Source: Clostridia bacterium (lineage in GTDB: Bacteria > Bacillota > Clostridia > Christensenellales > CAG-138). Taken from it: 64,000 nucleotides of DNA. A model generated the notes under the pieces. The model saw nothing but the letters and a program-made list of their open reading frames with translations. It made no database searches and was not told the origin of the DNA. The translations under genes were made by a program, and so were the position numbers. This document shows, in pieces, positions 6,087-42,522 of this stretch (position 1 is its first letter; the number at the start of each line of letters is the position of its first letter). Where the stretch lies: assembly GCA_017619735.1 (NCBI GenBank), contig JAFZRT010000020.1:2622-66621 (forward strand), in the 5' to 3' direction.

Positions 6087-6133
6087 TTTGAATGACCTTC
6101 GCCCATCTGTTGCATTTGCGGCAGTTGCCGTGT

Positions 6134-7132: not shown

Positions 7133-7162
7133 TCCTAACCTCCGAAATTTTACAACTCACGA

Positions 7163-8026: not shown

Positions 8027-8027
8027 T

Positions 8028-9167: not shown

Positions 9168-9231
9168 TGTAATCGGTCCCTGTTTGTATCAGTAAATGAT
9201 CTGTTCTCATCTGCTGCCTTGGCTACTGCAG

Positions 9232-11759: not shown

Positions 11760-11760
11760 G

Positions 11761-12672: not shown

Positions 12673-12710
12673 GTCGCCTTTTCCTTTCCAGCCGCGGCCG
12701 AAACCCGTTT

Positions 12711-13547: not shown

Positions 13548-13593
13548 ATACGTCTCCCCCCGGCGGAGATCGGTCCTCCGCCCTTTTGTTTTA

Positions 13594-14241: not shown

Positions 14242-14278
14242 TCCTTGATCCCCCCGAAGACTGTTTTTTCAGTCGATA

Positions 14279-15766: not shown

Positions 15767-15778
15767 ATCCGTCCCCCA

Positions 15779-18174: not shown

Positions 18175-18192
18175 TCTTCCCTCCGCTGCGCG

Positions 18193-20745: not shown

Positions 20746-20905
20746 TTTATCATTATACTACATATAAGAAGAGATTGCAACACCGTCAACGCCTCGGAAG
20801 ACGATCTCATTCATTTATTTACGCGCACTATTATAATATGTAGTTTCCGCCCGGCGGGGCAAAGAGCCGCGTTAAGGGGCCGCCGGCTGCCCGGCGGGAG
20901 CGTTT

Positions 20906-20922
20906 TGTCACATTGTGACAAC
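20906..20922. promoter_or_regulatory. Perfect 17-bp palindrome TTGTCACA-T-TGTGACAA (candidate operator)
   Basis: Read directly from the sequence. It lies in the divergent intergenic region between the EPS operon and the large surface-protein gene. Confidence 0.5.
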
Positions 20923-21012
20923 TGTATTCCGAACATGCGTTTCTTTGTGAAAAATCCAGAACGCTCCTGCAAAATATAATCTTCAAAATCTTCAAAACAT
21001 TCGTTCAAACTG

Positions 21013-21041
21013 TTGACATAATTGCTGCGGCATGATAAAAT
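21013..21041 (+). promoter_or_regulatory. Sigma-70-type promoter (TTGACA, 17 nt, TAAAAT) for the large surface-protein gene
   Basis: TTGACA at 21013-21018, a 17-nt spacer, TAAAAT at 21036-21041. A perfect 9-bp hairpin follows at 21042-21066 (ggcatagta/tactatgcc). Confidence 0.6.
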
Positions 21042-21140
21042 GGCATAGTATAAGGTTTACTATGCCATGGTATTGGTAAAAATCCGCGGCAATGTGAAAA
21101 AACCTTGATGAAACAGATATTCCCAAAGGAGGATAGAACA

Positions 21141-24100
21141 TTGAAAAAGCGTTTTGCGAAGTTCCTTGCTCTGGCCCTCGTGCTGGTCATGGTCCTTTCC
21201 GCCATCCCCTTCTCTGCCATCGCGCAGGGGTTCGTGAATGACGGCAACGAGACCACCGCCATCGGCGATCTCTGGAGCAAACTCAGGGGCGGTCTGAATG
21301 ATTTCTTCAGGCCCCGTCCCACGACCCCGCCCACGACCGATGGAAGAAGCTTCACCGGTGTTACGGAGAGCGGCCTTACCGTCAACGTCGACGCTCCCGC
21401 CGGCGCTTTCATGAACGGTACGACCATGACCGTCCGCGAGGTCGCGAATATGCAGGCAGTGCAGGATGCCGTCGATAACACCGATGGCGTATCCGGTACC
21501 GTCCTTGCTGCCGTCGATATCACCTTCATGCTTCGCGGCAGGGAAGTCCAGCCCACGAAGGATATCACCGTCAGCATCACCTCCGACGCTCTCGCTTCCG
21601 TGAGCAACCCCTCCGTCGTCCATATCGACGCGAGCGCGGATGAGCTCGGCGGCGAAGAGGACGCGGATCTTGTAGCCAACGTCAAGTCCGGCAACAGCAC
21701 CGTCACCTTCGAGGCGGACAGCTTCTCCATCTACGCGGTCATCGACGACGGCCAGGAGGGCGATCTCGCTCGTTTGGAGATCAATTTCTATAAGCCCTCC
21801 TATTCTGAAGGTCAGATGAGCTACGAACTCGTTGCGACTGTCTACGTCAAGAACTCCGATCAGCTCCTCGGCGACGGCGAACGTGTAGAAACCGTCCAGT
21901 ATATCGAGGATATCGTGTACGATCCCGGCGTGGGCGGCACCCTCGGCGATGGACTGCTCTTCGGCGGCTGGACCATCGACTCTGCCGACGCCAACCCGAC
22001 AGGCAGCACCAACTACGGCAAAAACTATGACGTCGACACCACGGTCTACACCATTCCCGGTATCTGCAAGTATCTCGCGCAGAAGAAGGTCGGCCATATT
22101 GCAGAGGGCGACAAGCTCGATATCTACGCTCTCATCTACAAGGTATTCGACGTGACCTATAAGGACTCGCACGACATCGTTCTTGCGTCCGACATAGTCA
22201 TGATGCCCCTTAACGCTACCTCCGGTTCCTTCACCATCAAGGAGACCTACAAGCCCAACGATCAGATCACGAACTTCGAAGGCTGGCAGGTGGCGGAAGG
22301 CGCGAGCAATATCTCCAACGCCAGCAAACCCGCGCCCTACCCCCAGGGCACGACCATGGATCTCTCCGGCGACGTCGTGTTCTCCACCGTGCTTGTCAGC
22401 GGCCACTGGCTCGTTTACGAGGAGAACGGCTACGGCGCGACCTATAATGCGCCCGCGTTCATCAAGTCCAACGAGCTGACCCATGCGCCCGCCCTTGAGA
22501 TGACCCGTCCCGGCTACACCTTCGGCGGCTGGTACACCGACGCCGCCTGCACCGCCGGCAACGAGTATCCTTTCAATCTGCCCCTTGAAGACCGTCTCAC
22601 CGTCTACGCGAAGTGGACCATGGCTACCACCGCCGACTATACGGTCATCATCTGGAAGGAGAACATCGACTGCGACGGCTACGATTACGTGGGATCCATC
22701 TCCATGAACGGCACTACGCAGTCCCCCATCAGCCCGATCACGAAGGTCAACGATACCACCGCGAGGGTAGACGGCACGAGCTACAGCTACACCGGCTTCG
22801 AAGTCGGTGACTATGACTCCAACGTCACCATAAAGCCCGCCGGCGGTTCCGTGCTCAATGTTTACTTTGACCGTATCGAGTATACGCTGACCTTTAAGGT
22901 TACCAATATTGCTTATACTTATAATGGTAGTGGATATGTAGATGCTCCTGTCGGTACCACTGCAGTAACCAATAGTAGTAACATTAATACGCTCAACAGC
23001 AACCAGAGAACGATCTCCGGATATCAAGTGTCGTATTACGGTAGTAATTATTATAACCGAACATATTGCGTAAAGGTTGGCTCTTCCTGGTACCCGATAA
23101 CTTCTAGAGGTTATAACGTTTACAATGCGAGCAACATTACTGCGGTTCCCGTTCCCGGCAACCCTGTTGTAAAAACAATCACTGCGGCTTTCGAGCAAGA
23201 TATTTCCGCTGAGTTCCCGATTGTTGCCGAAAACGGTGTTATCTATCCCACGGGAACCCGTTGGAACCCCGATAGTGGCTTGACTGTTGACGGCACAACG
23301 TACTTTACTCACGATGTCGTTGTCGCTTTTATCGATAAGATGACTCCCGGCGATATGGAGTTTGAGATAAGCGACCCGGGCAGTAGAACAGAAAAGACGA
23401 TGGTCTACTGGGTCGAAACCATCAACAACACTCCAACGGAAGGAAAAGCCACAAAAACATACAAGGGTGTTTTGTATGAAGAATACAAAACGGTACGTGC
23501 TCATTATACCGGCGTTACGATAGAGGACTATATTGAGCTTAACGGGTTCTCTCATTTGGAAGCTGACCAGTCCCTCGGCTATACATCCAACGGAACAACC
23601 TATTATGGCACGTCGTCCGGTGCAGCAACTGAGGTCAATTTCTACTACACTCGCAATCAGTATAGCATCATCTACTTTGACGGCGTCTACTACAACAGGG
23701 ACGGTATCATGACTGAAGACATGCCCGAGGATCAGGGCGAGCTCCATGTCGATAGCAGTATCTATTTCAACGCCGACATCAGCAGCTACGGTGAGGGCGG
23801 CGTCCATTACTATACCCCCACCTGCCCCCCCGGTTTCATTTTCGACGGCTGGTACCTCAACAAGGAGTGCTCTGATGGAGCCGAAGCCGACTTCGACAAG
23901 ATGCCCCTCGGCGGCATGAAGGTCTACGCCAAGTGGAGACTGATCGAATACCGCGTGTTCCTGAAGCCCAACGCCCTCCTGAACGGCACAAGAGACAACA
24001 CTCTTGACTGGGGTAAAGATGATCAGGCGACCAACTTCCGTATCGACTACAACAAAAAGGTCTCCTGCCCCACCGGTCTGAGGTACGGCTTCGAGTTCGG

Positions 24101-25976
24101 CGGCTGGTATACCGATCCCGACTTCAACTACATGTTCGACGACTCCACCAAGCTCACCGACTCCACCGTCCCCGAAACCCCGGTCTACGACAAGACGACC
24201 GACTTCACCGACGGTGCAGGCAACGTTGAGATGGATAAGTGGGGCCTCATCCCCGACGGAGCAACGCCCATCAACAAGGACGTTGACCGTTACTGGATCA
24301 CCCGCAAGCTCAACCTCTACGCCCGCTGGAGCAAGATCATCCCCGGCGCGAGCGGCGTTGGTCTCATCTACAACGCCAACGGCGGCACCAACGCCCCCGA
24401 TGACACCCGCCTCTACAAGGACAACGTCAAGGCGATCGCTCAGGCGGCTTCCACCGCACCCAATACGAACCAGCAGTTCCTGTACTGGGTAGTGCAGAAG
24501 TATGACACCGCGACCGGTACGTACGTAGACGCCATGAAGAGCGACGCCGGAGATCTCGACGAAGGCGAAGAGGACGGCCTCCTCATCGTCTATCCCGGCG
24601 AGCGTTTCAGCGTATTGCTCGACCTTGCCAAGCAGGAGCCCAGACTTGACGATAACGGGCAGCAGATGATCGACTACACCGATCCCGAGCATCCCCAGCC
24701 CCTCTGGGTCTACACCGTGGAGCTCAAGGCGATGTACGGCCCGAAGGCCGCTCCCACCCCGACCCATATCTCCTGGTTCTCCGGTCTGTACGACATCGAC
24801 GGCGGTTCGTTCGAGCTTGATTCCGTAACCCATCCCGGCACCGCCATCCAGGCCAACGCCACGACCGGCGGCATCGGCTGGGTCATCACCAACCCCAACC
24901 TGCAGATCAACCAGGCCGTTGATATCATGGCTGCCGACACCTACTCCATACCCGGCTACAAGTTCATCGGCTGGGCGAGGATCAACAACGAGACCGGCTA
25001 TCCCGGCAATAACGATCCCACCAGCATCACCATGGACGATATGTTCCTCGAGTACAGGGACGGCAAGTTCTATGCGAAGGCAAACTCCCGCGATACCGAG
25101 TTCACCGTTGAGGTGACCAAGGTCGCCGCGGACGAGGCGCATTCCTACCATGACCTCTACGCCATGTGGGTGCCCGAATACTTCTACGTATTCCACTCCT
25201 CCACCGGCAAGCTCGAGGCCATCAAGATGCCTCACTCCCTCTCCGAGACCTGCAACCTCGTTGCCAAGGTCCCGAGTACCCACCTCTACGGCGGTTACTA
25301 CAAGACCTACGGCGGCGTAACCCTCGAGAATATCGAGGCGGCCAAGAGCGGCGCGAAGTCCGCTACCACGCACGAGATCGAAGTCACCGGCGCCGTGACC
25401 TACGACGGTTCCAACCTCAAGAACGGCACCACCCGCTTCTGGACGAAGGCAGACGCCTACGGCATGAATCCCGGCGAGACCATCGGCAGCGCGCTGCAGC
25501 CCACGGCGGAGACCGTCTACTACCTCAAGGAGGTCCCGAAGAAGTATCTTGGCGTACATGCCAGGTGGATCTACAACTGGTACTACGACAACAGGATCGA
25601 TAATCTCTATCTCCTGACCGTCGTCGACGACCTCAACTACACCTCGGTCGGCTATACCGTTGCCTCCGATGATGAGATCGCAAGGCTCGTTTCGTCCTTC
25701 ACCTTCGTTCCGACCGCGTCCAACACCGGTGCGAATGCGAAGAGGGTCAAGATCACGGCCAACGACCTCATCGGGCAGCGCGGCTACCTCGGCGTCGTGG
25801 ATGCGACCGAATACATCGAAAGCATTGTCGCAAGCGGTACTGAAGGCATCCAGCTCAACCCGTTCTGGGTCACCATCGACGGCGTTGAAGTCAACAACGT
25901 GTACTACACCTTCGGCTGCAGCGGCGGCGACACGCTCACGACTGAGAACTTCACTCACGTGGTCTGCAATCCGTAA
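21141..25976 (+). CDS. Large secreted surface protein with Listeria-Bacteroides (Flg_new / InlB B-repeat-like) repeats; no LPXTG or other obvious anchor
   Basis: I placed the start at TTG 21141, 7 nt after AAAGGAGGA. That gives the signal peptide KKRFAKFLALALVLVMVLSAIPFSAIAQG. Recurrent modules are present: GYTFGGWYTDAACT...VYAKW, GFIFDGWYLNKECS...VYAKW, GFEFGGWYTDPDF and GYKFIGWARI. The C-terminus ends ...FTHVVCNP. Confidence 0.85.
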   Translation: MKKRFAKFLALALVLVMVLSAIPFSAIAQGFVNDGNETTAIGDLWSKLRGGLNDFFRPRPTTPPTTDGRSFTGVTESGLTVNVDAPAGAFMNGTTMTVREVANMQAVQDAVDNTDGVSGTVLAAVDITFMLRGREVQPTKDITVSITSDALASVSNPSVVHIDASADELGGEEDADLVANVKSGNSTVTFEADSFSIYAVIDDGQEGDLARLEINFYKPSYSEGQMSYELVATVYVKNSDQLLGDGERVETVQYIEDIVYDPGVGGTLGDGLLFGGWTIDSADANPTGSTNYGKNYDVDTTVYTIPGICKYLAQKKVGHIAEGDKLDIYALIYKVFDVTYKDSHDIVLASDIVMMPLNATSGSFTIKETYKPNDQITNFEGWQVAEGASNISNASKPAPYPQGTTMDLSGDVVFSTVLVSGHWLVYEENGYGATYNAPAFIKSNELTHAPALEMTRPGYTFGGWYTDAACTAGNEYPFNLPLEDRLTVYAKWTMATTADYTVIIWKENIDCDGYDYVGSISMNGTTQSPISPITKVNDTTARVDGTSYSYTGFEVGDYDSNVTIKPAGGSVLNVYFDRIEYTLTFKVTNIAYTYNGSGYVDAPVGTTAVTNSSNINTLNSNQRTISGYQVSYYGSNYYNRTYCVKVGSSWYPITSRGYNVYNASNITAVPVPGNPVVKTITAAFEQDISAEFPIVAENGVIYPTGTRWNPDSGLTVDGTTYFTHDVVVAFIDKMTPGDMEFEISDPGSRTEKTMVYWVETINNTPTEGKATKTYKGVLYEEYKTVRAHYTGVTIEDYIELNGFSHLEADQSLGYTSNGTTYYGTSSGAATEVNFYYTRNQYSIIYFDGVYYNRDGIMTEDMPEDQGELHVDSSIYFNADISSYGEGGVHYYTPTCPPGFIFDGWYLNKECSDGAEADFDKMPLGGMKVYAKWRLIEYRVFLKPNALLNGTRDNTLDWGKDDQATNFRIDYNKKVSCPTGLRYGFEFGGWYTDPDFNYMFDDSTKLTDSTVPETPVYDKTTDFTDGAGNVEMDKWGLIPDGATPINKDVDRYWITRKLNLYARWSKIIPGASGVGLIYNANGGTNAPDDTRLYKDNVKAIAQAASTAPNTNQQFLYWVVQKYDTATGTYVDAMKSDAGDLDEGEEDGLLIVYPGERFSVLLDLAKQEPRLDDNGQQMIDYTDPEHPQPLWVYTVELKAMYGPKAAPTPTHISWFSGLYDIDGGSFELDSVTHPGTAIQANATTGGIGWVITNPNLQINQAVDIMAADTYSIPGYKFIGWARINNETGYPGNNDPTSITMDDMFLEYRDGKFYAKANSRDTEFTVEVTKVAADEAHSYHDLYAMWVPEYFYVFHSSTGKLEAIKMPHSLSETCNLVAKVPSTHLYGGYYKTYGGVTLENIEAAKSGAKSATTHEIEVTGAVTYDGSNLKNGTTRFWTKADAYGMNPGETIGSALQPTAETVYYLKEVPKKYLGVHARWIYNWYYDNRIDNLYLLTVVDDLNYTSVGYTVASDDEIARLVSSFTFVPTASNTGANAKRVKITANDLIGQRGYLGVVDATEYIESIVASGTEGIQLNPFWVTIDGVEVNNVYYTFGCSGGDTLTTENFTHVVCNP

Positions 25977-26040: not shown

Positions 26041-26364
26041 ATGAAAAACACTACTAAAAAGATCATACTGCTTATCGCGATAATCCTTGTCGCTGCGGCG
26101 ATAATCACGGTTATCATCCACCCGTGGAAGCCCGCGGATCCCGGATCTGCCGATCCTACGCATCCCGCGGCGGATCCCACACCGGCCCCCACTCAGGCGG
26201 CCGACGATCCGGACGAAACTCCCGCTCAAACGGCGGAAGCAACGCCGGACGGTTTCACTCCCTCCCCCACCGAAGGCGGAGAGGATGACCCGGATGATGA
26301 GCCCGTGGTTACGGAGGAATTCGTAGTTGACCTCACCGAAGGTCAAGGCATAGGCGGTTTTTGA
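26041..26364 (+). CDS. Small membrane-anchored protein with an acidic Pro/Thr/Asp-rich ectodomain
   Basis: N-terminal TM helix (IILLIAIILVAAAIITVII), then PADPGSADPTHPAADPTPAPTQAADDPDETPAQTAEATPDGFTPSPTEGGEDDPDDEP. Confidence 0.6.
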   Translation: MKNTTKKIILLIAIILVAAAIITVIIHPWKPADPGSADPTHPAADPTPAPTQAADDPDETPAQTAEATPDGFTPSPTEGGEDDPDDEPVVTEEFVVDLTEGQGIGGF

Positions 26365-26385
26365 TCGAAAGAAAGGAGATAAAAA

Positions 26386-26649
26386 ATGGCAAATCCTCAA
26401 GCTGGTGATTCCTATTACGGCCTTACTGACGCTGCTTACTCTGCGCTGATCGGAATGGGCGGAGATATCGCGGCATGGGTGCAGGAGTATTTCGGCAGCG
26501 AATCGCTCAACGGTTTCCACGCCCTCAAGAACGAGGAATACGTGGATGATTTCTACGATTTCCTGCTCGAAAACAACCTTTCCGAAGACGCGTATCCCCT
26601 TGAGTTCTTCACCTATTACAAGTCTACGCAAGGCCTTGGAAATCTGTAA
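26386..26649 (+). CDS. Small acidic cytoplasmic-type hypothetical protein (87 aa, no Cys)
   Basis: Strong RBS AAAGGAGA 7 nt before the ATG. Aromatic/acidic-rich composition. A clear intrinsic terminator follows. Confidence 0.6.
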   Translation: MANPQAGDSYYGLTDAAYSALIGMGGDIAAWVQEYFGSESLNGFHALKNEEYVDDFYDFLLENNLSEDAYPLEFFTYYKSTQGLGNL

Positions 26650-26661
26650 TACGCTTTTTTC

Positions 26662-26692
26662 GAAAGGACCCCTCGCAGGGTCCTTTCTTTTT
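26662..26692 (+). terminator. Rho-independent terminator
   Basis: gaaaggaccc-ctcgca-gggtcctttc followed by TTTTTG. Confidence 0.8.
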
Positions 26693-26694
26693 GT

Positions 26695-27456
26695 GTGGAT
26701 ATGTTGTATAATCAATACATGATGAACAAGCGATACAGCATAACGATCGATCTTGCGGGCGTGCCGTTGAAGCTCTGCCTCGATTCGGAGGAAAGCCTGC
26801 GCTTTTTCGCGCCGTATAAGGCGGCCGACGGCGTTCGTCCCTTTGCGAAGGTCTCCGTCCCGGACGAGGCGTGGGCGTACATCCGCCGCCGCGGCTTTGT
26901 CGAGGACGAATTGAGCGAAGCCGGGCTCATCACGGCCTACGCCTCCGACGCGCTGCTGGAGACCGGCATGTGCCTCATACACGCCGTCGCGGTCCGCAAG
27001 GGCGACGGAGCATGGCTCATCGCCGCCCCGTCCGGCGTCGGCAAATCCACGCAGGTACGCTATCTCGACATGCTCTTCCCCGGCGAGTTCTCCGTTATTT
27101 GCGGGGACAGGCCCGTACTGCAGCTCGTCGGCGACGACAAGGTGCTCGTGCATCCCTCCCCGTGGAACGGCAAGGAGGGTTGGAAGGGCGCCGATTCCGC
27201 GCGGCTGGACGGCGTGATCTGCCTTAAGCGCGGCGAAGAAAACATTGTCGAGCCCATGAAAAAGACCGAAGCCGTGATACCCGTGTTCGAGGCGCTGATC
27301 CATTCCGGCAGCACCGCCGAGCAGGTCAGGCAGCTTGCCGCCTTTGAGGATGAGCTCCTCCGGCGCACGACCGTCTGGCGCATGATCAACCTCGGCGTGC
27401 CGTATTCGACCGATCTTTTATACAACACGCTTTTCGTACAGGAGGACCGGAAATGA
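26695..27456 (+). CDS. HPr-kinase-C-domain-like P-loop kinase (HprK-related peptide/protein kinase candidate)
   Basis: WLIAAPSGVGKSTQ (P-loop) followed by VICGDRPVL, in the position of the HprK xADD motif. The start is uncertain (GTG 26695; ATG 26701, 26719 or 26722) and no SD is visible. A TATAAT lies at 26707-26712. Confidence 0.6.
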   Translation: MDMLYNQYMMNKRYSITIDLAGVPLKLCLDSEESLRFFAPYKAADGVRPFAKVSVPDEAWAYIRRRGFVEDELSEAGLITAYASDALLETGMCLIHAVAVRKGDGAWLIAAPSGVGKSTQVRYLDMLFPGEFSVICGDRPVLQLVGDDKVLVHPSPWNGKEGWKGADSARLDGVICLKRGEENIVEPMKKTEAVIPVFEALIHSGSTAEQVRQLAAFEDELLRRTTVWRMINLGVPYSTDLLYNTLFVQEDRK

Positions 27457-27749
27457 AATACAAGCTTCGCGAAGGCATTGTACAGACCAAGATCTGCGGC
27501 GTATTCCTGCTCGTGCCCACGCGCGCGGCATCCGAATCGTGTCCGCATATTCAGAAGGTCGGCCTGCTCCTGTACTCCGCGATCGAGCTGCTGGAGCGCG
27601 GCGAACCCATCGAAAAGATCTATCAGATGTATCAGATACTGACAAAGAAGTCCGACGAGGAAGTCCGCGAGTTAGTGGACGGTCAGCTTGAAACCCTGCG
27701 GGAGAAGGGGTTCCTCGTTGCAGCGGAGGACGATCATGAGCAGGGTTGA
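27453..27749 (+). CDS. PqqD-family (RRE-type) peptide-binding protein
   Basis: 98 aa. YKLREGIVQTKICGVFLLVP ... LLLYSAIELLERGEPIEKIYQMY ... LRELVDGQLETLREKGFLV fits the PqqD winged-helix pattern. An ATGA start/stop overlap links it to the kinase gene. Confidence 0.6.
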   Translation: MKYKLREGIVQTKICGVFLLVPTRAASESCPHIQKVGLLLYSAIELLERGEPIEKIYQMYQILTKKSDEEVRELVDGQLETLREKGFLVAAEDDHEQG

Positions 27750-28959
27750 AACTGCTTTTTTCGACGCCCTGTGTGTGGGCGTCCGCGGCGGGGAGCTGCC
27801 GCGCGAATACGATCTCACCGCCGACGAGTGGGAGGATCTGCTGCTTCTTTCCTCGGAGCAGGAGGTGCTGCCACTCGTTTACGATGCCGTCTGCAGCTGC
27901 TCGAGCTTCCACAGGATCGACCGCGAAAGGCGTAAATACCTGCGCGATAAGGCGTTATCCGTCGCGATCCGTCAGATAGTGCAGACCAACGAATTCCTCA
28001 ATCTGATCCTGCATGCGCACGAAAAGGGGCTCGACCCCGTAGTGCTGAAGGGGATCACGATACGTTCCCTGTATCCGAAGCCGATGCTCCGGCCCTCCGT
28101 CGACGAGGACCTCCTCGTTCCAAGCGGCGAGATGCGGAAGTACCACGATTTTCTTGTTTCCGAGGGTCTGGAGCCGGACGACAAGGAACTGCCGCCTGAC
28201 GGCGCACCGGAACTGAGCTACCACCGTCCGAACTCCCCCACCTATATCGAGCTTCATTCGACCGCATTCCCCTCCTCCCCCGCCTACGGCGACTGTAACG
28301 AGCCGTTCGTCGGCGCGGCGGAGCGGAGCACGGAGGTCACGATCGAGGACGTGACGATGCGCACGCTCTCGCACACGGATCACCTCTTGTACCTCATTCT
28401 GCACGCATACAAGCACTTTCTGCACGGCGGATTCGGCATTCGCCATGTCTGCGATATGGGCATGTTCGCGGAGCATTGGGGCGCCCGGATCGACGCGGGA
28501 TACGTCATGGCGCAGTGTGAGAAGCTTCACATCGGCCGCTTTGCCGCGGCGCTCTTCCGCATTTGCGAGGAGCAGCTCGGCTTCGGCGATCTCGGCCTCT
28601 TCCCCGGCGTCGAGGTCGATACCGCGCATCTGCTTGACGACATCATATCGGGCGGCCTGTACGGCGCGAACGACATCAACCGTATGCACTCGTCCACACT
28701 CACGCTCGAGGCGGTCGCATCCCAGCGCGAGGGCAGGAAGCGCAGGAGCGCGCTCCACTCGGTGTTCCTTCCGAGAAAGGATCTGGATGGCCGCTATCCG
28801 TACCTCCGCAAACGCCCCTGGCTGCTCCCTGCGGCGTGGGCGCAGCGGATATGGAAATATGTGTTCGACCGCAGGGGAGGCCGCGTAAGCGCCTCTGAGA
28901 GCCTTAAAATAGGCCGTGACAGGATCGAACTGCTGAAAGAATACGACATCATAGAATAG
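27736..28959 (+). CDS. NTP_transf_5 (PF14907-like) nucleotidyltransferase family protein
   Basis: LLLLSSEQEVLPLVYDAV ... DPVVLKGITIRSLYPKPMLRPSVDEDLLVP ... IELHSTAF is typical of the uncharacterised nucleotidyltransferase family seen in lasso and other RiPP clusters. I moved the start to ATG 27736, a 14-nt overlap with the PqqD-like gene. Confidence 0.6.
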   Translation: MSRVETAFFDALCVGVRGGELPREYDLTADEWEDLLLLSSEQEVLPLVYDAVCSCSSFHRIDRERRKYLRDKALSVAIRQIVQTNEFLNLILHAHEKGLDPVVLKGITIRSLYPKPMLRPSVDEDLLVPSGEMRKYHDFLVSEGLEPDDKELPPDGAPELSYHRPNSPTYIELHSTAFPSSPAYGDCNEPFVGAAERSTEVTIEDVTMRTLSHTDHLLYLILHAYKHFLHGGFGIRHVCDMGMFAEHWGARIDAGYVMAQCEKLHIGRFAAALFRICEEQLGFGDLGLFPGVEVDTAHLLDDIISGGLYGANDINRMHSSTLTLEAVASQREGRKRRSALHSVFLPRKDLDGRYPYLRKRPWLLPAAWAQRIWKYVFDRRGGRVSASESLKIGRDRIELLKEYDIIE

Positions 28960-28967
28960 GCGGTATC

Positions 28968-29636
28968 ATGGAAAAGAAAAGCACGGCTGCGGGCGTCATT
29001 GGCGGCGCCGCATCCATTGTCATCATCGCACTGTTCGCCGCGGTGCTGATATTCCCCGCCCCGCGCGAGGTGTTCAAATCCCTCTCCTCCGGCCATCCGT
29101 ACATAATGGGCTTCGTCAAATTCGCCCTGCTCGCTACCGTGGGTGAGGTGCTTGCCCTGAGGATAAGGGCGCGCGCGTGGCTCCTTCCCTGCTACGTCGG
29201 CTGGCGCATGCTGATATGGGGACTTATCGGCGTCGCGATAACATTCATGATGAAGACATATTCGTACGGCGTGGCGGGCATGATGGAAGCGAAGCTGCTG
29301 CCCGGCGCGGGCGACGGGTTCCTCAGCCGCCTGCTCAAGGCGTTCTACACCGCCGCGGTCATGAACCTGACATTCGGGCCGACCTTCATGGCGACGCACA
29401 AATGCACCGACAAATATCTCGAGCTACGGCACGAGGGCGTCAGAAAGCCGGGGCTGAAGGGCGTCGTGAACGGCGTAGACTGGCACTCGTTCGTGAGCTT
29501 CACGCTGTTCAAGACCATACCGCTGTTCTGGATCCCCGCGCACACGCTGACCTTCCTACTGCCCGCGGAGTATCAGGTGATCGCCGCAGCGGCGCTCTCC
29601 ATAGCGCTGGGGCTAATACTGAGCCTGAAAAAATGA
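28968..29636 (+). CDS. Polytopic membrane protein, possibly Mpv17/PMP22-like
   Basis: 4-5 predicted TM helices. The C-terminal FWIPAHTLTFLLPAEYQVIAAAALS resembles the W-P-x-x-Q-x-x-N-F-x-x-V-P-x-x-x-R motif of Mpv17/PMP22, a weak by-eye match. It lies 8 nt after the nucleotidyltransferase stop. Confidence 0.5.
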   Translation: MEKKSTAAGVIGGAASIVIIALFAAVLIFPAPREVFKSLSSGHPYIMGFVKFALLATVGEVLALRIRARAWLLPCYVGWRMLIWGLIGVAITFMMKTYSYGVAGMMEAKLLPGAGDGFLSRLLKAFYTAAVMNLTFGPTFMATHKCTDKYLELRHEGVRKPGLKGVVNGVDWHSFVSFTLFKTIPLFWIPAHTLTFLLPAEYQVIAAAALSIALGLILSLKK

Positions 29637-29654: not shown

Positions 29655-29677
29655 GGATGGCTCGTGCCATCCTTTTT
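29655..29677 (+). terminator. Weak intrinsic terminator after the cassette
   Basis: ggatgg-ctcgtg-ccatcc followed by TTTTT. Confidence 0.5.
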
Positions 29678-29683
29678 CATATG

Positions 29684-29712
29684 TTGAAAGCCATACGTGT
29701 TTTTGATAAAAT
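29684..29712 (+). promoter_or_regulatory. Sigma-70-type promoter (TTGAAA, 17 nt, TAAAAT) upstream of the ECF sigma gene
   Basis: Read directly: TTGAAA at 29684-29689 and TAAAAT at 29707-29712. Confidence 0.55.
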
Positions 29713-29773: not shown

Positions 29774-30352
29774 ATGGAGGAGCTTATGACCGATGAACGG
29801 ATAATCGAACTGTACTTTTCGCGGGATGAAGCGGCGATAAGCGAGACCGACCTGAAATACGGCGGCTACTGCTTTTCGATAGCCGAAAACATCCTTGCGG
29901 ACAGGCGCGATTCGGAGGAGTGCGTGAACTCGACCTGGTTCGCGGCGTGGAATGCCATGCCCCCGAAGAGGCCGAACGTGCTCAAGCTGTTCCTCGCAAG
30001 GATCACACGGGGACTCGCGTTCAACCGCTACAACGAGCGCGCGGCAAAGAAGCGCGGCGGAGGCGAGATGAGCCTTGTTCTCGACGAGCTTTCGGAAGTC
30101 GTGGGCGAAGGCAATGCGGCGGATGAGGCCGAACTTGAAGACCTTAAAGCTGCCGTCGCGCGGTTTGTCAGAGCGCTCCCCGAACGCGAAAGGAACGTGC
30201 TCGTAAGGCGCTGTTTCTACACCGAATCCATCGGATCCATCGCCGCTCGCTACGGCATATCCGGCTCCGGCGTTATGAGCGCCCTTTCACGGGCAAGGAA
30301 AAAACTCAAATACTTTCTTATTAAGGAAGGGTTTTTAGATGAACGCAAATGA
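29774..30352 (+). CDS. ECF-type RNA polymerase sigma-70 family factor
   Basis: Region 2 (IIELYFSRDEAAISETDLKYGGYCFSIAENIL) and region 4 HTH (RNVLVRRCFYTESIGSIAARYGISGSGVMSALSRARKKL). Confidence 0.85.
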   Translation: MEELMTDERIIELYFSRDEAAISETDLKYGGYCFSIAENILADRRDSEECVNSTWFAAWNAMPPKRPNVLKLFLARITRGLAFNRYNERAAKKRGGGEMSLVLDELSEVVGEGNAADEAELEDLKAAVARFVRALPERERNVLVRRCFYTESIGSIAARYGISGSGVMSALSRARKKLKYFLIKEGFLDERK

Positions 30353-31250
30353 CCTTTACAAGAGCTTTGACGCTGTTGATGACGATACCCTCGCAAACAG
30401 CGAGACCGATCGGACCCGCGGAAACAGGCTCGTTAAGTGGATCTCCGCCGCGGCGGCGGCGATGGTGCTGGGCTTCGGCATATTCGCAATAAGCCATATT
30501 ATCAAAAGCAGCGGAGATGATCCCCATGTGGTGAAGCCCACGGAGCAGACGACCGATGATCCGGGATCCCTGGCCGCCGCTTTCGCCGAGATCTTCAAGA
30601 ACGCCGTCCTTTTACCCTCCGCAGACCGCATCATGTTCGATGGCGGGCTCGAAAGCTGGAAGGCGTTTTACGATAATAAAGGCATTCCGTACTCCGCCGT
30701 CGAGGGCGAAGTCATATCCACAAGATATTATCTTTACTGGCTCAACGACGAGCACGGCCGCTCTGTCGCCTGGGGAGCGGCGGTCTCCGAAGTCATGCTC
30801 GGAAGCGTTCCGGCGGAGCTCAACAAGCTCGGTCTTGCGGCAGGAGAGACCGTGTATGTTTACGACTCGGTCGAAATGGTCCCCGCGGATAACGATTGCT
30901 TCAGACTGATGAGCGCAAAGACCGGAAAGAACATAACTTGCGTTGAGGATCTCGAGGATGTGGAAAGCTTCCTGTTCGAGATAACCGCAGACGATCTTGT
31001 AAACTACAGCTTTGAGCCGATCGTTCGCGACGACACGCTTCCGAAAGAGATCGGCAGGAAGTATTACATGCTCGTCGTTCGTTCTTCCGGGGAGGCAGGA
31101 AGCCGTCTCGGGAACGCTTATGAGCAGCTCCTGTACTGTGCCGTATCCGTTCCGACGGACGAGACCCTCGGATCGCTGCACGCCGCATACGGATTCCGTT
31201 TCGATCAGGATATCGTGCTGATCTCCGAGGAGCTCAGCAGGATCTTTTGA
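30339..31250 (+). CDS. Putative anti-sigma factor (single-pass membrane protein)
   Basis: Overlaps the sigma gene by 14 nt. Short cytoplasmic N-terminus, one TM helix (WISAAAAAMVLGFGIFAISHII) and an extracytoplasmic domain. Confidence 0.5.
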   Translation: MNANDLYKSFDAVDDDTLANSETDRTRGNRLVKWISAAAAAMVLGFGIFAISHIIKSSGDDPHVVKPTEQTTDDPGSLAAAFAEIFKNAVLLPSADRIMFDGGLESWKAFYDNKGIPYSAVEGEVISTRYYLYWLNDEHGRSVAWGAAVSEVMLGSVPAELNKLGLAAGETVYVYDSVEMVPADNDCFRLMSAKTGKNITCVEDLEDVESFLFEITADDLVNYSFEPIVRDDTLPKEIGRKYYMLVVRSSGEAGSRLGNAYEQLLYCAVSVPTDETLGSLHAAYGFRFDQDIVLISEELSRIF

Positions 31251-31262
31251 CGGGATCGAGCG

Positions 31263-31292
31263 AGGGGAGAGCTTCGGCTCTCCCCTCCTTTT
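31263..31292 (+). terminator. Intrinsic terminator
   Basis: aggggagagc-ttcg-gctctcccct followed by CCTTTTG. Confidence 0.8.
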
Positions 31293-31378
31293 GTATTGGC
31301 TTTCGCTCCCGGCTCGAACCGCCGTATACACGGCAAAAGCCGCGGCCGAATACCAGGCCGCGGTCAAGTAATGCCCGT

Positions 31379-32074
31379 TCATTTCTCCGCGCGCTGTATC
31401 ACGCCGTCCTTCATCCTTATTATCCGGTCGCAGCGCTCGGCTACTGACATATCGTGAGTGACTATCACCACCGTCCTGCCATCGTTCCTGCAGAGGTCCA
31501 GCAGCAGGTTCATCACGATATCCCTGTTCTGCGCGTCCAGCGAGCCCGTTGGTTCGTCGGCGAGTATCATCGGCTGCCCGCAGACGATCGCCCGGGCGAT
31601 GGCGGCGCGCTGTCTCTCCCCGCCGGACAGCTGCGCCGGACGCCTGCGGAGCTTATCGGCAATACCGAGGCGTTCCGCCGCCTCGCGGACACGGCTTTTG
31701 TATTCGGAGGGCCGGATGCTTTTATTGTAAAGCATGGGCAGGCGGATATTGCAGTAGACGCTCTCGCCGTCGAGCAGAGCGAAATCCTGCATGACATAGC
31801 CGAAATTCGCGCTGCGGAAGCGACAGCTTTTACCGTCCGGCATGCCGTCGATGCGCTCCCCGTCCATCTCGATACTGCCCGAGTCCGGCGTTATGATCAG
31901 TCCGAGCATATTGAGCAGCGTCGATTTGCCGGATCCGGACGGCCCGACTATTGCGACTATCTCGCCCGCGCGGATCGTGAGCTCCACGTTCCTTACCGCC
32001 CTTACGACGGAATCTCCCGGGGAACGGTAGCTCTTCGAAAGCCCTTTGACGCATAAGCTTTTCAAATCATTCAC
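31379..32074 (-). CDS. ABC transporter ATP-binding protein (MacB/LolD/FtsE-like)
   Basis: Walker A GPSGSGKST, signature LSGGERQR, Walker B ILADEPTGSLD. Confidence 0.9.
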   Translation of the reverse strand: MNDLKSLCVKGLSKSYRSPGDSVVRAVRNVELTIRAGEIVAIVGPSGSGKSTLLNMLGLIITPDSGSIEMDGERIDGMPDGKSCRFRSANFGYVMQDFALLDGESVYCNIRLPMLYNKSIRPSEYKSRVREAAERLGIADKLRRRPAQLSGGERQRAAIARAIVCGQPMILADEPTGSLDAQNRDIVMNLLLDLCRNDGRTVVIVTHDMSVAERCDRIIRMKDGVIQRAEK

Positions 32075-33263
32075 CTCTCCTTCCTTCGGCGGATCCGGCG
32101 TTGGATCTGCAGAACTCGTATAGGGATATAGCGAGCACGAAAACGGTTATAAGCCCCGTCGCAAGCGCCGTCCGGCCGACACCGGCAAGCGATATCGTCC
32201 CGCGCGCCTTTTCCGTCACCTCGGTCCCGTCCGCGTAATACGTCACGGAATACGCGGCGGGGAAAAGCGCCGTATACCACAGATAGAGTATCGCAGGCAG
32301 GTTGTATCCAAGCCCGAAAAGCGCCATCCTGGCGAATATGAACGGCCGCGGAGCCCCGAAAAGGCGGTGTATCGAATACTCCGGCTCCCAGCGGCGTATC
32401 GCCCGCGACACGTTCATCGCCATAGCCGCGATGAGCGCGGCGGCCGCGCCTATGCTGAAAATCATGCCGGTATAGTTTCTCATGCGGTTCGTCTGCGCGC
32501 CAAGGTATTCCTCCATGGTCTGGACGAAAGCGAACTTCCCCGTCTCCCTTTCGATCGCGGCGACGAGCTCCGCAAGCTCCTCCTCGTCCGCGCCGAACGA
32601 CAACAGGCAGTTGTTGACGAAGTTCGTCGGGCCGTACCAGAACACCCGCCGCAGGCTTTCATAGTCCCTTATAAAAACGAACAGCGCGCCGGAATGATTG
32701 GCGGAAAGCTCCGGGTGGACCGGGTGATAGATCATGGCGTCATTCGGAATAACCCCCGAAACCAGAAGCTCGGCGCCTTCGACGGAAACGGTCTTTCCTA
32801 CGAGCCCGGCGTTCTCCTCCGTAACGCAGATATAGTAATCGCAGTCCTCCGGTACGTCGACCGGGGCGAGATCGACGTATCTGCCCACGAAATAGACATA
32901 CTTCGTTTCGGATGAATAAGGATCCCTCTCCGCGGCCCAGCATCCGAGACTGCCGCCCCTCGAAAAGCCCTCCCGGAATATCTCCTTCAGGGAGCGTCCC
33001 GTATAAGGTCCTGGCCTGTCTCCGGATCCGGCGCGCGCGGAATCCGGCACGCTGCTGAGCTTGAGGCCCTTAACGAGTATCATGCTGATATCGGCCATGC
33101 GCATATACTCCTCGGTCTCCTGCATTTCCTTGACCGAGGCCGACGTCAGTCCGCCCAGTATGCCCGGCAGGGCGCTGAGCACCATGCTCGCGAGCACACT
33201 GTAGACCGCGAGCCATATCAGCTCCCGGCGAAGATCGTTCACGACCTGACGAATAAGCTTCAT
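32067..33263 (-). CDS. FtsX-like ABC transporter permease
   Basis: N-terminal TM helix, a large extracytoplasmic loop and C-terminal helices with the FtsX-type pattern. I moved the start to ATG 33263 (ATGA overlap with the upstream permease). Confidence 0.7.
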   Translation of the reverse strand: MKLIRQVVNDLRRELIWLAVYSVLASMVLSALPGILGGLTSASVKEMQETEEYMRMADISMILVKGLKLSSVPDSARAGSGDRPGPYTGRSLKEIFREGFSRGGSLGCWAAERDPYSSETKYVYFVGRYVDLAPVDVPEDCDYYICVTEENAGLVGKTVSVEGAELLVSGVIPNDAMIYHPVHPELSANHSGALFVFIRDYESLRRVFWYGPTNFVNNCLLSFGADEEELAELVAAIERETGKFAFVQTMEEYLGAQTNRMRNYTGMIFSIGAAAALIAAMAMNVSRAIRRWEPEYSIHRLFGAPRPFIFARMALFGLGYNLPAILYLWYTALFPAAYSVTYYADGTEVTEKARGTISLAGVGRTALATGLITVFVLAISLYEFCRSNAGSAEGRRGE

Positions 33264-34300
33264 TTTGCGCCTCCCCTGCTCCGTCCCGCGAGCATCGCCG
33301 CTCCGCACGCTGCGACTGCCGCAGCGAGCAGCAGCAGTATCACCGCGAACGCCGCCATGAAACGGACCACGTGCCGCGCCTCATAGAACCAGAACGCTTT
33401 TGCGGCGGAGGCGATCAGGAAGAACAGCGCGAGACCCGACACGACCGTGAGCAGGGATACGGACGCAAAAACCAGCATCATGCGGCCGCGGGACATTCCG
33501 AAGATATGGCGCACGGAAAAGCGCCTCAGCTCGTCGCGGCATAGCATGAGCCCCGCGTAGACGCAGGCAAGCATGAGCGAAAGTATCCCGTAAGCGGTCG
33601 GCCGCATATCCGCGCTGAACGGATCGTCATGCGTGAAGCACTCCCCGATGCCCTCAAAAAGCCCTATCGGCCGGGAGACGATATCGACGTTCAATTCCTC
33701 GCGGTAGCCGCTTTGCTTAATAAGCTCGGCGAGCTCGCCGACCCTTTCCGTGCCCGACACTATCTGCCACACGGGGGAATCCATGGCTCCTCCGCGCTTC
33801 GTGAACATGCTCATGGGACATATGAAGCCCATGTTGCGAAGGCCGCGCGGCATTCTGTTCTCGTCATACATGCCTACTACGCGCACGTCGAGCTTCCCGC
33901 GCATGAAAACGCCGTCCGTGACGCAGTGCCGGACGTCCGGCGCGGAGCTGACTATAACGCCACGCCCTTCAATGAGATCGGCGCTTCTGCCGCTTATCAG
34001 GACGGAGTCGAGCCAGCCGGTATCGCCGCCCAGCGCTATGCCCGCGGCATCCGTCCGTGAGAGCAGCATGAGCGAGCCGTCCTCGTCCGCAAAAGCCGAA
34101 AGTCCGTTTACAAAGCTCTCGAAGGCGGCGTCCATCTGCTTCTCCTCTCCGGCGTAATAATTTCGGCTGTTTGCCTGCAGGGTCGTGCAGCCGTCGATCG
34201 GGAGCTTGAAGTATGCAGAATAGACGCTCATTACGCCGAAGCCGAGCGCCGCCTCCATAACGCATATCATCAGCAGTATCGCAATGCTTTTGAGCTTCAT
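33260..34300 (-). CDS. FtsX-like ABC transporter permease (second subunit)
   Basis: Same topology as the neighbouring permease; ...IFGMSRGRMMLVFASVSLL... is a C-terminal FtsX-type helix. Confidence 0.65.
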   Translation of the reverse strand: MKLKSIAILLMICVMEAALGFGVMSVYSAYFKLPIDGCTTLQANSRNYYAGEEKQMDAAFESFVNGLSAFADEDGSLMLLSRTDAAGIALGGDTGWLDSVLISGRSADLIEGRGVIVSSAPDVRHCVTDGVFMRGKLDVRVVGMYDENRMPRGLRNMGFICPMSMFTKRGGAMDSPVWQIVSGTERVGELAELIKQSGYREELNVDIVSRPIGLFEGIGECFTHDDPFSADMRPTAYGILSLMLACVYAGLMLCRDELRRFSVRHIFGMSRGRMMLVFASVSLLTVVSGLALFFLIASAAKAFWFYEARHVVRFMAAFAVILLLLAAAVAACGAAMLAGRSRGGAK

Positions 34301-34550
34301 GCCGCTCCTTTCGGGGAATGCGCGGCTCCGCCCGCGGTCCCTTCAACAGTAAACTCGCAAAAGGATCCCTTTTGTGACGCGCACGATCGGTCAAAACGTA
34401 ATATATTATCGCTGCCGAGAAAGCCGCGGCTCAAAGCCCGCATAAGGAGCGGCGAGCGCCGACAAAAAAAGACCCGGGGATAAACGGATCATCCCCGGAT
34501 CTTATGTTTTTGCCGAAAACCGCTGTGCGGGATCTCCCGCGGGGCGTGCC

Positions 34551-36014
34551 TCAGTTGTCGGCCCTGTTGTAGCCGTTCTTCATGGTCTTCTGGGATTCGA
34601 GAAGGACGTTGTTCAGGGCCTTCGTCGATTCCTCCTTCGCCATCTTCGCAAGCTCGGCGTTCGCCTTCTCGCAGAGGGAGATACCGCCCGACGCCGCTAT
34701 CTTCGCGTCGTATTCGCGGATGATGCGCCTGCCCTCGGTCATGACCCTCGCCTGATAGCGCTGGATATGCTGTATGCAGGTGTTGTAGCTGTGGTCCGCA
34801 AGCGCGCCGATGAGGCAGCTGGCCCAATAGAAGTTCTCCGTCGAGACGTCGAGCGTGACGTCGGAAAGATACGGGGGCATCTTATGCACGTTGGGATAGA
34901 CGGGCAGGAGCGCGTCGAAGGTGGTGGAGCCGAAGCAGATCCACTCTATGCCGCGTATGGGCTCCGGCGCGTCCTTCCTTATCTGACAGACGGAGGTGAC
35001 GCCGGTGCGGTTGATGCCGATGGAGCGGTACTTGCCGCGCACGCCCGTATCCTGATTGAGATAGGGGTTATAGGGCGTGCCCTGATAATTGGAGGAGAGC
35101 ATGTATTTGACGTCCTCCACCGCGATCCTGCGGTCGGGCACGAAGCACCAGGGGATATTGTCGCTCTCCGGGCCGAATTCGGCGTTCTCGTCATCCCATC
35201 TGTGGGAATAGGGGGTAAGGAAGCGGCCCATGAACCATGCGCGCGGGGTGTTGTAGATATGGTCCTGATCCGAATGCGAGCCGAATATGTCGCGCGGGTC
35301 GAATCTGCCGCCCTGATTGCAGTCGAGGCGGTTGTCCGCAATGAACTCCCTAAGGTCGGCGGAGCAGATATGCGTCTTCTGCTTTCCTAAGGCGTCCTCC
35401 ATATCGAAAGAGTCCATGCCGAACTGATTGGGCATCACCACGACCGCGTCGTCGGGCACGCGCTTCGCCATCCAGTGATGGCCGCCGATGGTCTCCATCC
35501 ACCAGATCTCGTTCTCGTCATTGAACGCTATGCCGTTGGATTCGTACGTTCCGTACTTTTCGAGAAGCGCGCCGAGGCGCAGCACGCCCTCCCGCGCGGT
35601 CCTTATATAGGGGAGCACGAGCACAACGATATCCTCCTCGCCGATGCCTCCGGGGGTATCCTTTTCGCCGCGCTTCTTCGCCTTTTTGGGGACCACGAGT
35701 GGATCCGCCGAGAGCACGCGGGGATTCGAAGTGATGGTCTCCGTCGCGGTCATGCCGACGCCCGCGGCGTTGATGCCCGTCGCGGCCCAGACGCCGTTCT
35801 TCGTATCGACGCTGGGACAGGCGGTATAGCGCATGGGCTCCTCATTGAGCTCGATCTCGACATGGGAGATGACGGACTTGTATTTCCGCTTCTGATCCTT
35901 CGGTTCGACCACTATGAGCTTTTTGGTGTCGAAATGGCCGTCGTCCGTGCGGGCGATCATTGTTGAGCCGTCGTTCGAGGCCTTTCTTCCGACGAGTACT
36001 GTCGTGCAGGGCAT
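34551..36014 (-). CDS. C69-family dipeptidase
   Basis: MPCTTVLVGRKASNDGSTMIARTDD (N-terminal nucleophile Cys) and the expected length. Confidence 0.85.
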   Translation of the reverse strand: MPCTTVLVGRKASNDGSTMIARTDDGHFDTKKLIVVEPKDQKRKYKSVISHVEIELNEEPMRYTACPSVDTKNGVWAATGINAAGVGMTATETITSNPRVLSADPLVVPKKAKKRGEKDTPGGIGEEDIVVLVLPYIRTAREGVLRLGALLEKYGTYESNGIAFNDENEIWWMETIGGHHWMAKRVPDDAVVVMPNQFGMDSFDMEDALGKQKTHICSADLREFIADNRLDCNQGGRFDPRDIFGSHSDQDHIYNTPRAWFMGRFLTPYSHRWDDENAEFGPESDNIPWCFVPDRRIAVEDVKYMLSSNYQGTPYNPYLNQDTGVRGKYRSIGINRTGVTSVCQIRKDAPEPIRGIEWICFGSTTFDALLPVYPNVHKMPPYLSDVTLDVSTENFYWASCLIGALADHSYNTCIQHIQRYQARVMTEGRRIIREYDAKIAASGGISLCEKANAELAKMAKEESTKALNNVLLESQKTMKNGYNRADN

Positions 36015-42488: not shown

Positions 42489-42522
42489 ATTGGCATGTCA
42501 TGATGTTAACGGGGATAATGAA

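Follow-up and report, generated by a model that had tools for sequence, protein, structure and literature searches.

A putative peptide-phosphorylation cassette at the head of a Clostridial capsule locus, probably related to LPP clusters

Linear polyphosphorylated peptides (LPPs) were described only in May 2026, from Bacilli, as products of lppA-K-B-S-D-N clusters that are embedded in capsule loci and whose conserved core includes a SipW-like signal peptidase I and an MsbA-like exporter (Popov et al., Nat Commun, May 2026, PMC13381572). The precursors in these clusters comprise 35-200 amino acids (aa) and carry a YxxPxVLxHQxIxFETxxS leader; the kinase LppK adds one to four phosphates to the core Ser3 in a manner dependent on the RRE, the recognition element for peptides that are made by the ribosome and modified post-translationally (RiPPs); LppS removes the leader; and the final structure and role of the product are unknown (PMC13381572). 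Here, we compare these clusters with a six-gene group at positions 26041-29636 of a 64,000-nucleotide stretch (the window) of contig JAFZRT010000020.1 from a Clostridia bacterium, which encodes an HprK-like kinase, a PqqD-like RRE and an NTP_transf_5 nucleotidyltransferase (NTase). The window cassette is probably related to an LPP cluster and would work in a similar way, a conclusion drawn from window proteins whose matches are to the very models that make up the LPP kinase and exporter classes.

Three further systems carry related enzymes. The SynChlorMet (SCM) cassette combines ScmC and a PqqD homologue with two radical S-adenosylmethionine (radical-SAM)/SPASM enzymes, and the HPr-rel-A system (TIGR04352) likewise has a PqqD partner. 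The ScmC model TIGR04249 is the best NCBIfam match of the kinase-like protein of the window, below cutoff, but there is no radical-SAM gene in the window module. With HPr-rel-A, known from exopolysaccharide (EPS) loci of Proteobacteria, the window shares a kinase-like/PqqD-like/nucleotidyltransferase trio beside exopolysaccharide genes, whereas the TIGR04352 score is far below the family cutoff and both the phylum and the surrounding system differ. In lasso-peptide tailoring, the C-terminal Ser of pseudomycoidin is phosphorylated, and its phosphate bears one or two hexoses; the hexoses require PsmN, and the DxD motif of PsmN is required for its function. The literature agrees here with what an initial annotation of this DNA, made from the sequence alone, had stated of PsmK and PsmN. 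Tailoring of the paeninodin/pseudomycoidin type has in common with the window an HprK-like kinase, a PqqD-type RRE and an uncharacterised nucleotidyltransferase with an invariant DxD; the window differs in having neither cyclase nor B2 protease, a precursor candidate of 87 aa rather than a precursor of ~40 aa, and a putative acceptor other than the C-terminal Ser.

Cassette enzymes and their LPP counterparts

In the supplementary table of the LPP study, the 'HprK kinase' class consists of matches to TIGR04249, TIGR04352 and TIGR04355, with a single Hpr_kinase_C match, the 'MsbA transporter' class corresponds to TIGR02203/02204, and the clusters are annotated with NTP_transf_5 (PMC13381572). 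The same three kinase models are the sole NCBIfam matches of the 245-aa kinase-like protein of the window (26719-27456, + strand), all of them sub-threshold: ScmC (TIGR04249; E = 1e-5, 25 bits against a cutoff of 125), HprK_rel_A (TIGR04352; E = 0.013, 14.7 bits against a cutoff of 200) and HprK_rel_B (E = 0.11). A 597-aa MsbA-like ABC exporter with ABC_membrane and ABC_tran domains (18952-20745, - strand), the proposed LppD equivalent, has TIGR02204 (E = 2.4e-73) and TIGR02203 (E = 9.7e-70) as its best NCBIfam matches. Besides these two classes, the window shares with LPP clusters a discrete PqqD-type RRE, an NTP_transf_5 protein, the lack of a macrolactam cyclase, the setting in a capsular polysaccharide (CPS) locus, and a precursor gene (in the window, a candidate) for a 35-200-aa product directly upstream of the kinase gene.

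The initial annotation had proposed an autonomous RRE-guided phospho-(glyco)sylation system for an unidentified peptide or protein. Its three enzymes do belong to the HprK-like, PqqD/RRE and NTP_transf_5 groups, and experiments in Bacilli have since demonstrated an autonomous, RRE-guided route of peptide phosphorylation with this gene set, which gives such systems a name, LPP (PMC13381572). We regard that interpretation as partly supported: right in outline, incomplete, and partly pre-empted by the 2026 LPP paper (PMC13381572).

The 245-aa protein had been likened to the HPr-kinase C-domain, and the likeness holds for the fold but not for the family. No match to PF07475 (Hpr_kinase_C) was obtained at E ≤ 1, and a profile of 38 kinase orthologues returned generic P-loop matches only when compared with PDB sequences (guanylate kinase, E ~0.1), so that a fold search was needed to place the protein. 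Its AlphaFold (AF2) model, with a predicted local distance difference test score (pLDDT) of 95.1, matches PEPCK and HprK/P with a Foldseek probability of 1.0 and E ~1e-6. The fold is that of HprK/P and PEPCK, with the His-x-P-loop and the following G/D-D motif conserved; HprK/P nevertheless differs from the 245-aa protein in its N-terminal domain, at ~10-16% identity, and falls into another Pfam family, since many of the 397 database relatives of the 245-aa protein carry the new label PF27840 'ScmC'. Across an alignment of 38 relatives, H88, G108-K109-T111, G129-D130 and W149-N-G-K-E153 are invariant, and the P-loop follows the pattern G-K-[ST]-T-Q. We propose that this ScmC-family (PF27840) P-loop protein is a peptide Ser kinase and the equivalent of LppK, a comparison made via the shared family models and the HprK/PEPCK fold.

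The 98-aa protein encoded next (27453-27749, + strand) was matched by none of the NCBIfam models, and its placement, as that of the kinase, rests on orthologue profiles and folds because direct Pfam matches failed. Pfam PqqD is matched by 13 of its 31 positional orthologues (best E = 9e-14), and database relatives carry the name 'PqqD family protein'. Comparison of the orthologue profile with the PDB gave LppB as the best match (9x8z_B, E = 7.5e-4), followed by TbiB1 and TfuB1. The AF2 model (pLDDT 89.6) superposes on the lasso B1 RREs TbiB1/TfuB1 with template modelling (TM) values of 0.75-0.87, and then on other RRE domains, making lasso B1 proteins the nearest structural neighbours. Orthologue scans, profile and structure model together point to a divergent PqqD-type RRE, the putative LppB/B1 equivalent; the earlier label 'PqqD-like' is borne out at the level of fold and orthologue profiles and not by a direct PF05402 match.

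The third enzyme, a 407-aa protein (27736-28959, + strand) and the putative PsmN/LppN equivalent, matches PF14907 (NTP_transf_5) at E = 1e-47, as had been predicted. Among 41 orthologues, no variation is seen at K105-G106, D123-x-D125 or E172-x-H174. Judged by its sequence, this KG/DxD/ExH set is the catalytic pattern of nucleotidyltransferases and includes the DxD pair essential in PsmN. Phosphonate-cluster literature that names PF14907 is unrelated to the protein described here.

Conserved gene order and small upstream proteins

A scan of species-representative genomes yielded 45 loci from 42 metagenome-assembled genomes (MAGs), to which metagenome contigs added more; counts are over 46 distinct loci unless a smaller number is given. 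The hosts are almost all rumen or gut Oscillospiraceae, Ruminococcaceae, Lachnospiraceae and Erysipelotrichaceae. Maps based on hidden Markov models (HMMs) revealed a recurrent order: a giant Flg_new gene, the small gene(s), kinase, RRE, (anchored acidic gene), NTP_transf_5, (222-aa gene), MsbA-like exporter, CpsB, an Ig-like protein gene, two Wzz/kinase genes and a priming transferase. The RRE gene lies directly 3' of the kinase gene in 42/45 loci, NTP_transf_5 is within 1.5 kb in 29/37, and the giant gene is directly upstream of the kinase in 27 of the 34 loci that have at least 2 kb of upstream sequence. Within the fetched flanks, the exporter is present at 21 loci and CPS genes at 16, and the same CPS head genes as in the window continue from the cassette on one strand in L004, L007, L009, L012, L027, L033 and L038. 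Recurrence of the cassette in 46 distinct loci is more than chance. The statement that the cassette has no lasso cyclase, B2 protease or radical-SAM enzyme also held, in that none belongs to the conserved module: Transglut_core3 (B2 protease) was absent among the 36 window proteins scanned, and no radical-SAM domain was present in any scanned neighbour.

Some loci depart from this order. At L028:1965-20693, two tandem units each contain a giant Flg_new gene, a small gene and a kinase gene, the small proteins (type B, see below) being paralogous but distinct. A single kinase gene at L007:10721-14355 is followed by a divergent RRE gene and a canonical PqqD-type one, along with a pair of NTP_transf_5 genes. 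The cassette contigs of L016 and L024 were binned as Bacteroidales/Prevotellaceae and lack the giant gene, indicating cross-phylum transfer or a binning error; L016 also has two kinase genes in opposite orientation.

In the window, two small genes precede the kinase gene. The first (26041-26364, + strand) encodes a 107-aa membrane-anchored acidic protein with an N-terminal hydrophobic anchor, a P/T/D/E-rich linker and tail, and a conserved C-terminal strand with an EGQGIGGF tail. The second (26386-26649, + strand), directly upstream of the kinase gene, has a strong Shine-Dalgarno (SD) sequence, AAGGAG, and encodes an 87-aa acidic protein in which an N-terminal motif, SYYGLTDAAYSAL, is present and Ser80, within ...YYKSTQGLGNL, is conserved. 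Reading of the sequence confirmed the earlier description of the 87-aa product as acidic and Cys-free and of the 107-aa product as transmembrane-anchored with a P/T/D-rich tail.

Both products had been named as candidate substrates, and the 87-aa protein is the one now favoured. Counterparts of the 107-aa protein occur in at least 25/46 loci, many with lipoprotein lipoboxes; their genes lie upstream of the kinase gene (type A) or are placed after the RRE gene and before NTP_transf_5 (type B). Its sequence suggests an exported lipoprotein or a transmembrane-anchored component, which is unlikely to be the substrate because it would be exported or anchored while the kinase is cytoplasmic. The 87-aa protein is the best precursor candidate: positionally equivalent small genes, each with a strong SD, are found in 26/26 loci examined, so the comparison of gene neighbourhoods that had been suggested does find a small upstream gene co-occurring with the cassette. 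A strong SD combined with a downstream hairpin would correspond to the classic layout for overproduction of a RiPP precursor relative to its enzymes. A short unlisted ORF (open reading frame) had been offered as a further candidate; a search of 18-36 kb turned up no such hidden ORF carrying a YxxPxL leader.

The two small proteins of the window have similar C-terminal tails (...EGQGIGGF, 26330-26364, in the 107-aa protein; ...STQGLGNL, 26620-26649, in the 87-aa protein). These tails co-vary by clade (L001, L004, L006, L013, L017, L030 etc.), GGF occurring with GGF, and GGN with an ending of two hydrophobic residues and Pro; no known sorting or processing signal fits them.

Across the related loci, the small genes follow two layouts. 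In type A (the window and about 15 others), an acidic lipoprotein or transmembrane-anchored protein ending in a short hydrophobic strand and ...EGxG-I/V-GG-F/N is encoded first, followed by an acidic cytoplasmic protein of 74-93 aa that bears a [ST]YYxL[ST]xx[DE]YxxL motif at its N-terminus and, 7-12 residues before its C-terminus, a Ser that is conserved (in ...KSTQGxGG[FN] or ...SxQ...hhP). Type B loci encode a single 78-108-aa protein upstream of the kinase, with [YFW]xxPx[LIVMF] at residues 5-13; a YxxP-type leader motif is what lasso and LPP RREs bind. This motif is followed by a Gly/Ser/Thr-rich linker, often containing G-[ST]-x-Q-G, and by a dockerin/EF-hand-like DxNGDGxVDxxDY loop. The type B candidates of L027-L034, L038, L041 and L043 contain a single such calcium-loop motif and then WW..NGF..AW..NP, and from the sequence of the loop these candidates look less like a short peptide core than like a small folded module that binds calcium. 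A canonical leader motif was accompanied by a canonical PqqD-type RRE in 10/10 loci, whereas loci without the motif had the divergent RRE subtype in 12/16, including the window, and a canonical RRE in 4/16 (Fisher test, 2e-4, not corrected for phylogeny).

The precursor side is also where the window departs most from LPP clusters. Type B relatives keep the [Y/W]xxPx[L/V/I] part of the LPP leader, but the rest of the consensus (HQxIxFETxxS) is absent from the window and from these relatives; the 87-aa candidate of the window has no YxxP motif and is paired with a divergent RRE, and the conserved Ser lies near the C-terminus. The SipW-like signal peptidase I, the defining LPP bait, was not found: a motif search (SxSMxP in a plausible frame, not an HMM scan of all ORFs) gave no candidate in the 64-kb window or in 49 loci, and the conserved module has no unassigned gene of SipW-peptidase size. 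The giant Flg_new protein and the membrane-anchored acidic protein, co-conserved here, are components that no report on LPPs mentions. The two groups also differ in host: Bacilli for LPPs, uncultured Clostridia from rumen and gut for the present cassettes.

Transcription, proposed pathway and alternative readings

Direct reading and a scan placed all six ORFs, their overlaps, the motifs quoted for them and the terminator where the initial annotation had put them; APSGVGKST, ICGDR and VLKG...DEDLLVP are all present in the translations. The coupling junctions are an ATGA overlap (27453-27456), a 14-nt overlap (27736-27749) and an 8-nt gap (28960-28967), the last preceding a 222-aa ORF (28968-29636, + strand). 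The kinase ORF is read from ATG 26719, with ATG 26701 and GTG 26695 as alternative starts, and the 407-aa ORF from its ATG, the upstream TTG 27688 being open as well.

Between the precursor candidate and the kinase gene lies a terminator-like hairpin with a T-run (26662-26697, + strand), which we propose to be an attenuator. The consensus scan places the hairpin at 26662-26687 (26662-26692 as first annotated), with a 10-bp stem containing 6 G-C pairs; it reads GAAAGGACCC-CTCGCA-GGGTCCTTTC and is followed by a TTTTTGTGTG tail. Either a leaderless kinase mRNA or terminator read-through had been proposed. A TATAAT is present at 26707-12, but it lacks a -35 element, and the consensus scan called no promoter between 26662 and 26719, so the leaderless transcript was rejected. 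Read-through is favoured because hairpins are conserved after the precursor gene, a hairpin and T-run standing 3' of the positionally equivalent small gene in 17/26 loci.

The six genes and the upstream 1623-aa gene look like one operon with an internal attenuator, since a strong promoter-like site precedes the giant gene (21013-21041, + strand; TTGACA-17-TAAAAT, 11 of 12, TG), a terminator-like hairpin closes the operon after the 222-aa gene (29655-29672, + strand), and no promoter was called between the internal hairpin and the kinase start. The upstream site is part of a divergent promoter region (20752-21041) that also holds a minus-strand promoter-like site at 20780-20752, each a consensus match only. 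In the same scan, the next promoter-like site (29684-29712) precedes an unrelated ECF sigma gene.

With moderate confidence, we favour the reading of the locus as a peptidase-less Clostridial relative of the LPP pathway that forms the head of a capsule locus. By analogy with LPP clusters, the cassette would most likely add phosphate, and perhaps a sugar, to a small protein and export the product beside capsule genes. The promoter before the giant Flg_new gene would drive one transcript, from which the strong SD and the attenuating terminator would yield the 87-aa protein in excess over the enzymes. The 98-aa RRE would bind the N-terminal part of the 87-aa protein and present it to the ScmC-type HprK-fold kinase, which would phosphorylate a conserved Ser, possibly several times, with Ser80 in ...KSTQG... 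as the candidate acceptor. The NTP_transf_5 protein would then elaborate the phosphate, most likely by adding a sugar drawn from the nucleotide-sugar pool of the capsule pathway, and the divergently encoded MsbA-like ABC transporter (18952-20745) would export the product. Outside the cell, the capsule, the giant surface protein and the acidic, membrane-anchored 107-aa protein may be the partners with which the product acts.

Several points weigh against this pathway. The evidence is drawn from families, folds, gene order, conservation and regulatory signals, that is, from sequences and models, and every biochemical step, the substrate and the acceptor residue are inferred. The 98-aa protein of the window does not match PF05402 (PqqD) at E ≤ 1, and the [YFW]xxP motif is absent from the 87-aa protein. 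An exhaustive phmmer search returned two real relatives of the 87-aa protein among 1.84 billion representatives (three further matches, to giant Ig-repeat proteins with He_PIG, Big_1 and TIG domains, look compositional or repeat-driven and were set aside). Homology between the type A and type B small proteins, suggested by a shared DY..WW..NGF..AW-like centre, was not demonstrable, as reciprocal HMM searches gave cross-scores below 4 bits. LppN showed no activity in the published LPP system (PMC13381572). Processing is unexplained, as no leader peptidase was found and the exporter has no C39 peptidase domain by Pfam. Finally, the exporter, which also matches PglK and glucan exporters among the NCBIfam models, could instead be the flippase for the lipid-linked capsule glycan.

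Foremost among the alternatives, and in our judgement unlikely, is that the trio serves capsule biosynthesis or control and makes no peptide product. The nucleotidyltransferase and the P-loop protein would, for example, act on a sugar, a lipid carrier or the polymer, and the PqqD-like and small proteins would be regulators or adaptors, much as one might picture the unexplained HPr-rel-A genes beside Proteobacterial EPS loci. Such a role would suit the consistent linkage of the module to CPS genes and an MsbA/PglK-like exporter, and would require neither a leader peptidase, of which none was found, nor NTase activity on peptides, a step that published work has never reconstituted in vitro; moreover, no Wzx was recognised in the CPS locus. 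However, the exporter follows the cassette in four loci without CPS genes detected downstream, the closest characterised gene set, that of LPPs, phosphorylates a ribosomal peptide, and the RRE fold together with the canonical leader motifs of type B proteins points to a peptide ligand.

It is also quite unlikely that the target of the trio is one of the larger exported proteins of the module, either the giant Flg_new protein or the 107-aa anchored one, which would be phosphoglycosylated before secretion in place of the 87-aa protein. The enzymes have no signal peptides, whereas both of these proteins carry Sec or lipoprotein signals and their conserved parts are extracytoplasmic. RREs bind short N-terminal leaders, and the canonical motif occurs in the small cytoplasmic protein of type B loci, not in the anchored or giant protein. 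These points stand against the co-conservation of the giant gene (27/34 loci) and its duplication with the kinase in L028, the conservation of the anchored acidic protein, C-terminal ...Q-G-S/I-G-G-F/L tail included, across at least 25 loci, and the likeness of the 107-aa and 87-aa tails.

A more far-reaching proposal, which we consider very doubtful, is that phospho- or pyrophospho-Ser on the small protein would be a peptide analogue of undecaprenyl phosphate, serving as primer or anchor for the capsule glycan. The NTP_transf_5 protein and the capsule glycosyltransferases would build or attach the glycan, the MsbA/PglK-like transporter would export a phosphodiester-linked glycopeptide, and through this product the capsule would be joined to the anchored stalk and the giant Flg_new protein, which share the product's C-terminal QGxGG[F/L/N] tail. 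If true, this would represent a protein-primed or peptide-anchored route of capsule assembly in Gram-positive gut bacteria.

A decayed lasso cluster that has lost its cyclase and B2 protease is highly improbable: the HprK-like kinase, PqqD-type B1 protein and NTP_transf_5 protein are typical of Firmicute lasso tailoring and the window has an Asn-synthase-like gene (9232-10788), but that gene scores 37 bits against the TIGR01536 cutoff of 267, lies among glycosyltransferases 15 kb away and was not found in related loci, no Asn-synthase PP-loop (SGGxDS) ORF of at least 350 aa is present in the window or any of the 46 loci, and the cyclase-less module is kept in 46 loci with catalytic residues intact.

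For the favoured LPP-like pathway, the survey extends an LPP-type enzyme set beyond Bacilli, to Clostridia of rumen and gut (at least 42 genomes at species level), and without the signal-peptidase step. The context points to cell-surface or capsule biology and not to antibiosis, and the synteny with a giant surface protein, an anchored acidic protein and capsule export and regulation genes provides testable partners for LPP function. There is also a risk that genome-mining rules take loci of this kind for partial lasso clusters.

Neighbouring genes in the window

The cassette had been described as stand-alone, a view that its surroundings contradict: it heads a capsule locus and is accompanied by the divergent MsbA-like exporter gene and the co-conserved giant Flg_new gene. 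The latter (21105-25976, + strand) encodes a giant secreted protein of 1623 aa that has a Listeria-Bacteroides (Flg_new) repeat (PF09479, E = 1.5e-16; TIGR02543 also matches) as well as a signal peptide, and that lacks an LPXTG motif. In the window, the exporter gene is divergent from the giant gene; in many relatives it comes directly after NTP_transf_5, including the four loci without CPS genes detected downstream (L008, L011, L013 and L026).

The fourth coupled gene of the cassette, downstream of NTP_transf_5, encodes the 222-aa polytopic membrane protein, which had been counted as a cassette member. Its coupling stands, but it is better described as accessory than as part of the core, being present in 3/46 related loci and always between NTP_transf_5 and the ABC exporter. 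The protein is uncharacterised: searches with Pfam, NCBIfam, PDB sequences and PADLOC gave no significant match, Mpv17/PMP22 remaining below threshold at E = 0.021. Where it occurs (L001, L009 and L038), it is far better conserved than its neighbours, at 79-86% identity where the kinases share 40-67%. A reading of the locus as a defence system was set aside, with no PADLOC matches.

The capsular/exopolysaccharide locus occupies 1692-18942 on the - strand. Pfam scans identified genes for a CpsB phosphatase, an Ig-like 287-aa protein, two Wzz/tyrosine-kinase fusions, a Bac_transf priming transferase, HpcH-like, 2-Hacid_dh and ATPgrasp_ST proteins, the Asn-synthase-like protein, three GT1 and one GT2 glycosyltransferases, LicD and an EpsG-type polymerase. 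No Wzx flippase was recognised by Pfam among the genes scanned, and the MsbA/PglK-like transporter (18952-20745) could fill that role. A 346-aa ORF (4004-5044) in the locus has no family match. Translational coupling joins the divergent Asn-synthase-like/PP-loop gene to an ATP-grasp gene labelled 'sugar-transfer associated' (9232-11759, - strand), and this pair may amidate the polysaccharide or ligate an amino acid to it.

Downstream of the cassette, the block at 29774-36014 encodes an ECF sigma factor, a putative anti-sigma factor of 303 aa, an ABC ATPase, two unannotated membrane-protein-like ORFs and a C69 peptidase. Judged by gene content, this block is an insertion unrelated to the cassette, because L001, the closest relative, does not have it: there, genes for a dCMP deaminase, YebC and a sortase come after the 222-aa gene. 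Further along the window, a low-GC island at 40671-43581 (0.45-0.51 against ~0.59) comprises an NTP_transf_3-aminotransferase fusion and an ATP-grasp protein, the latter encoded by a second ATPgrasp_ST gene at 42490-43581; the island may be a horizontally acquired sugar-modification unit.

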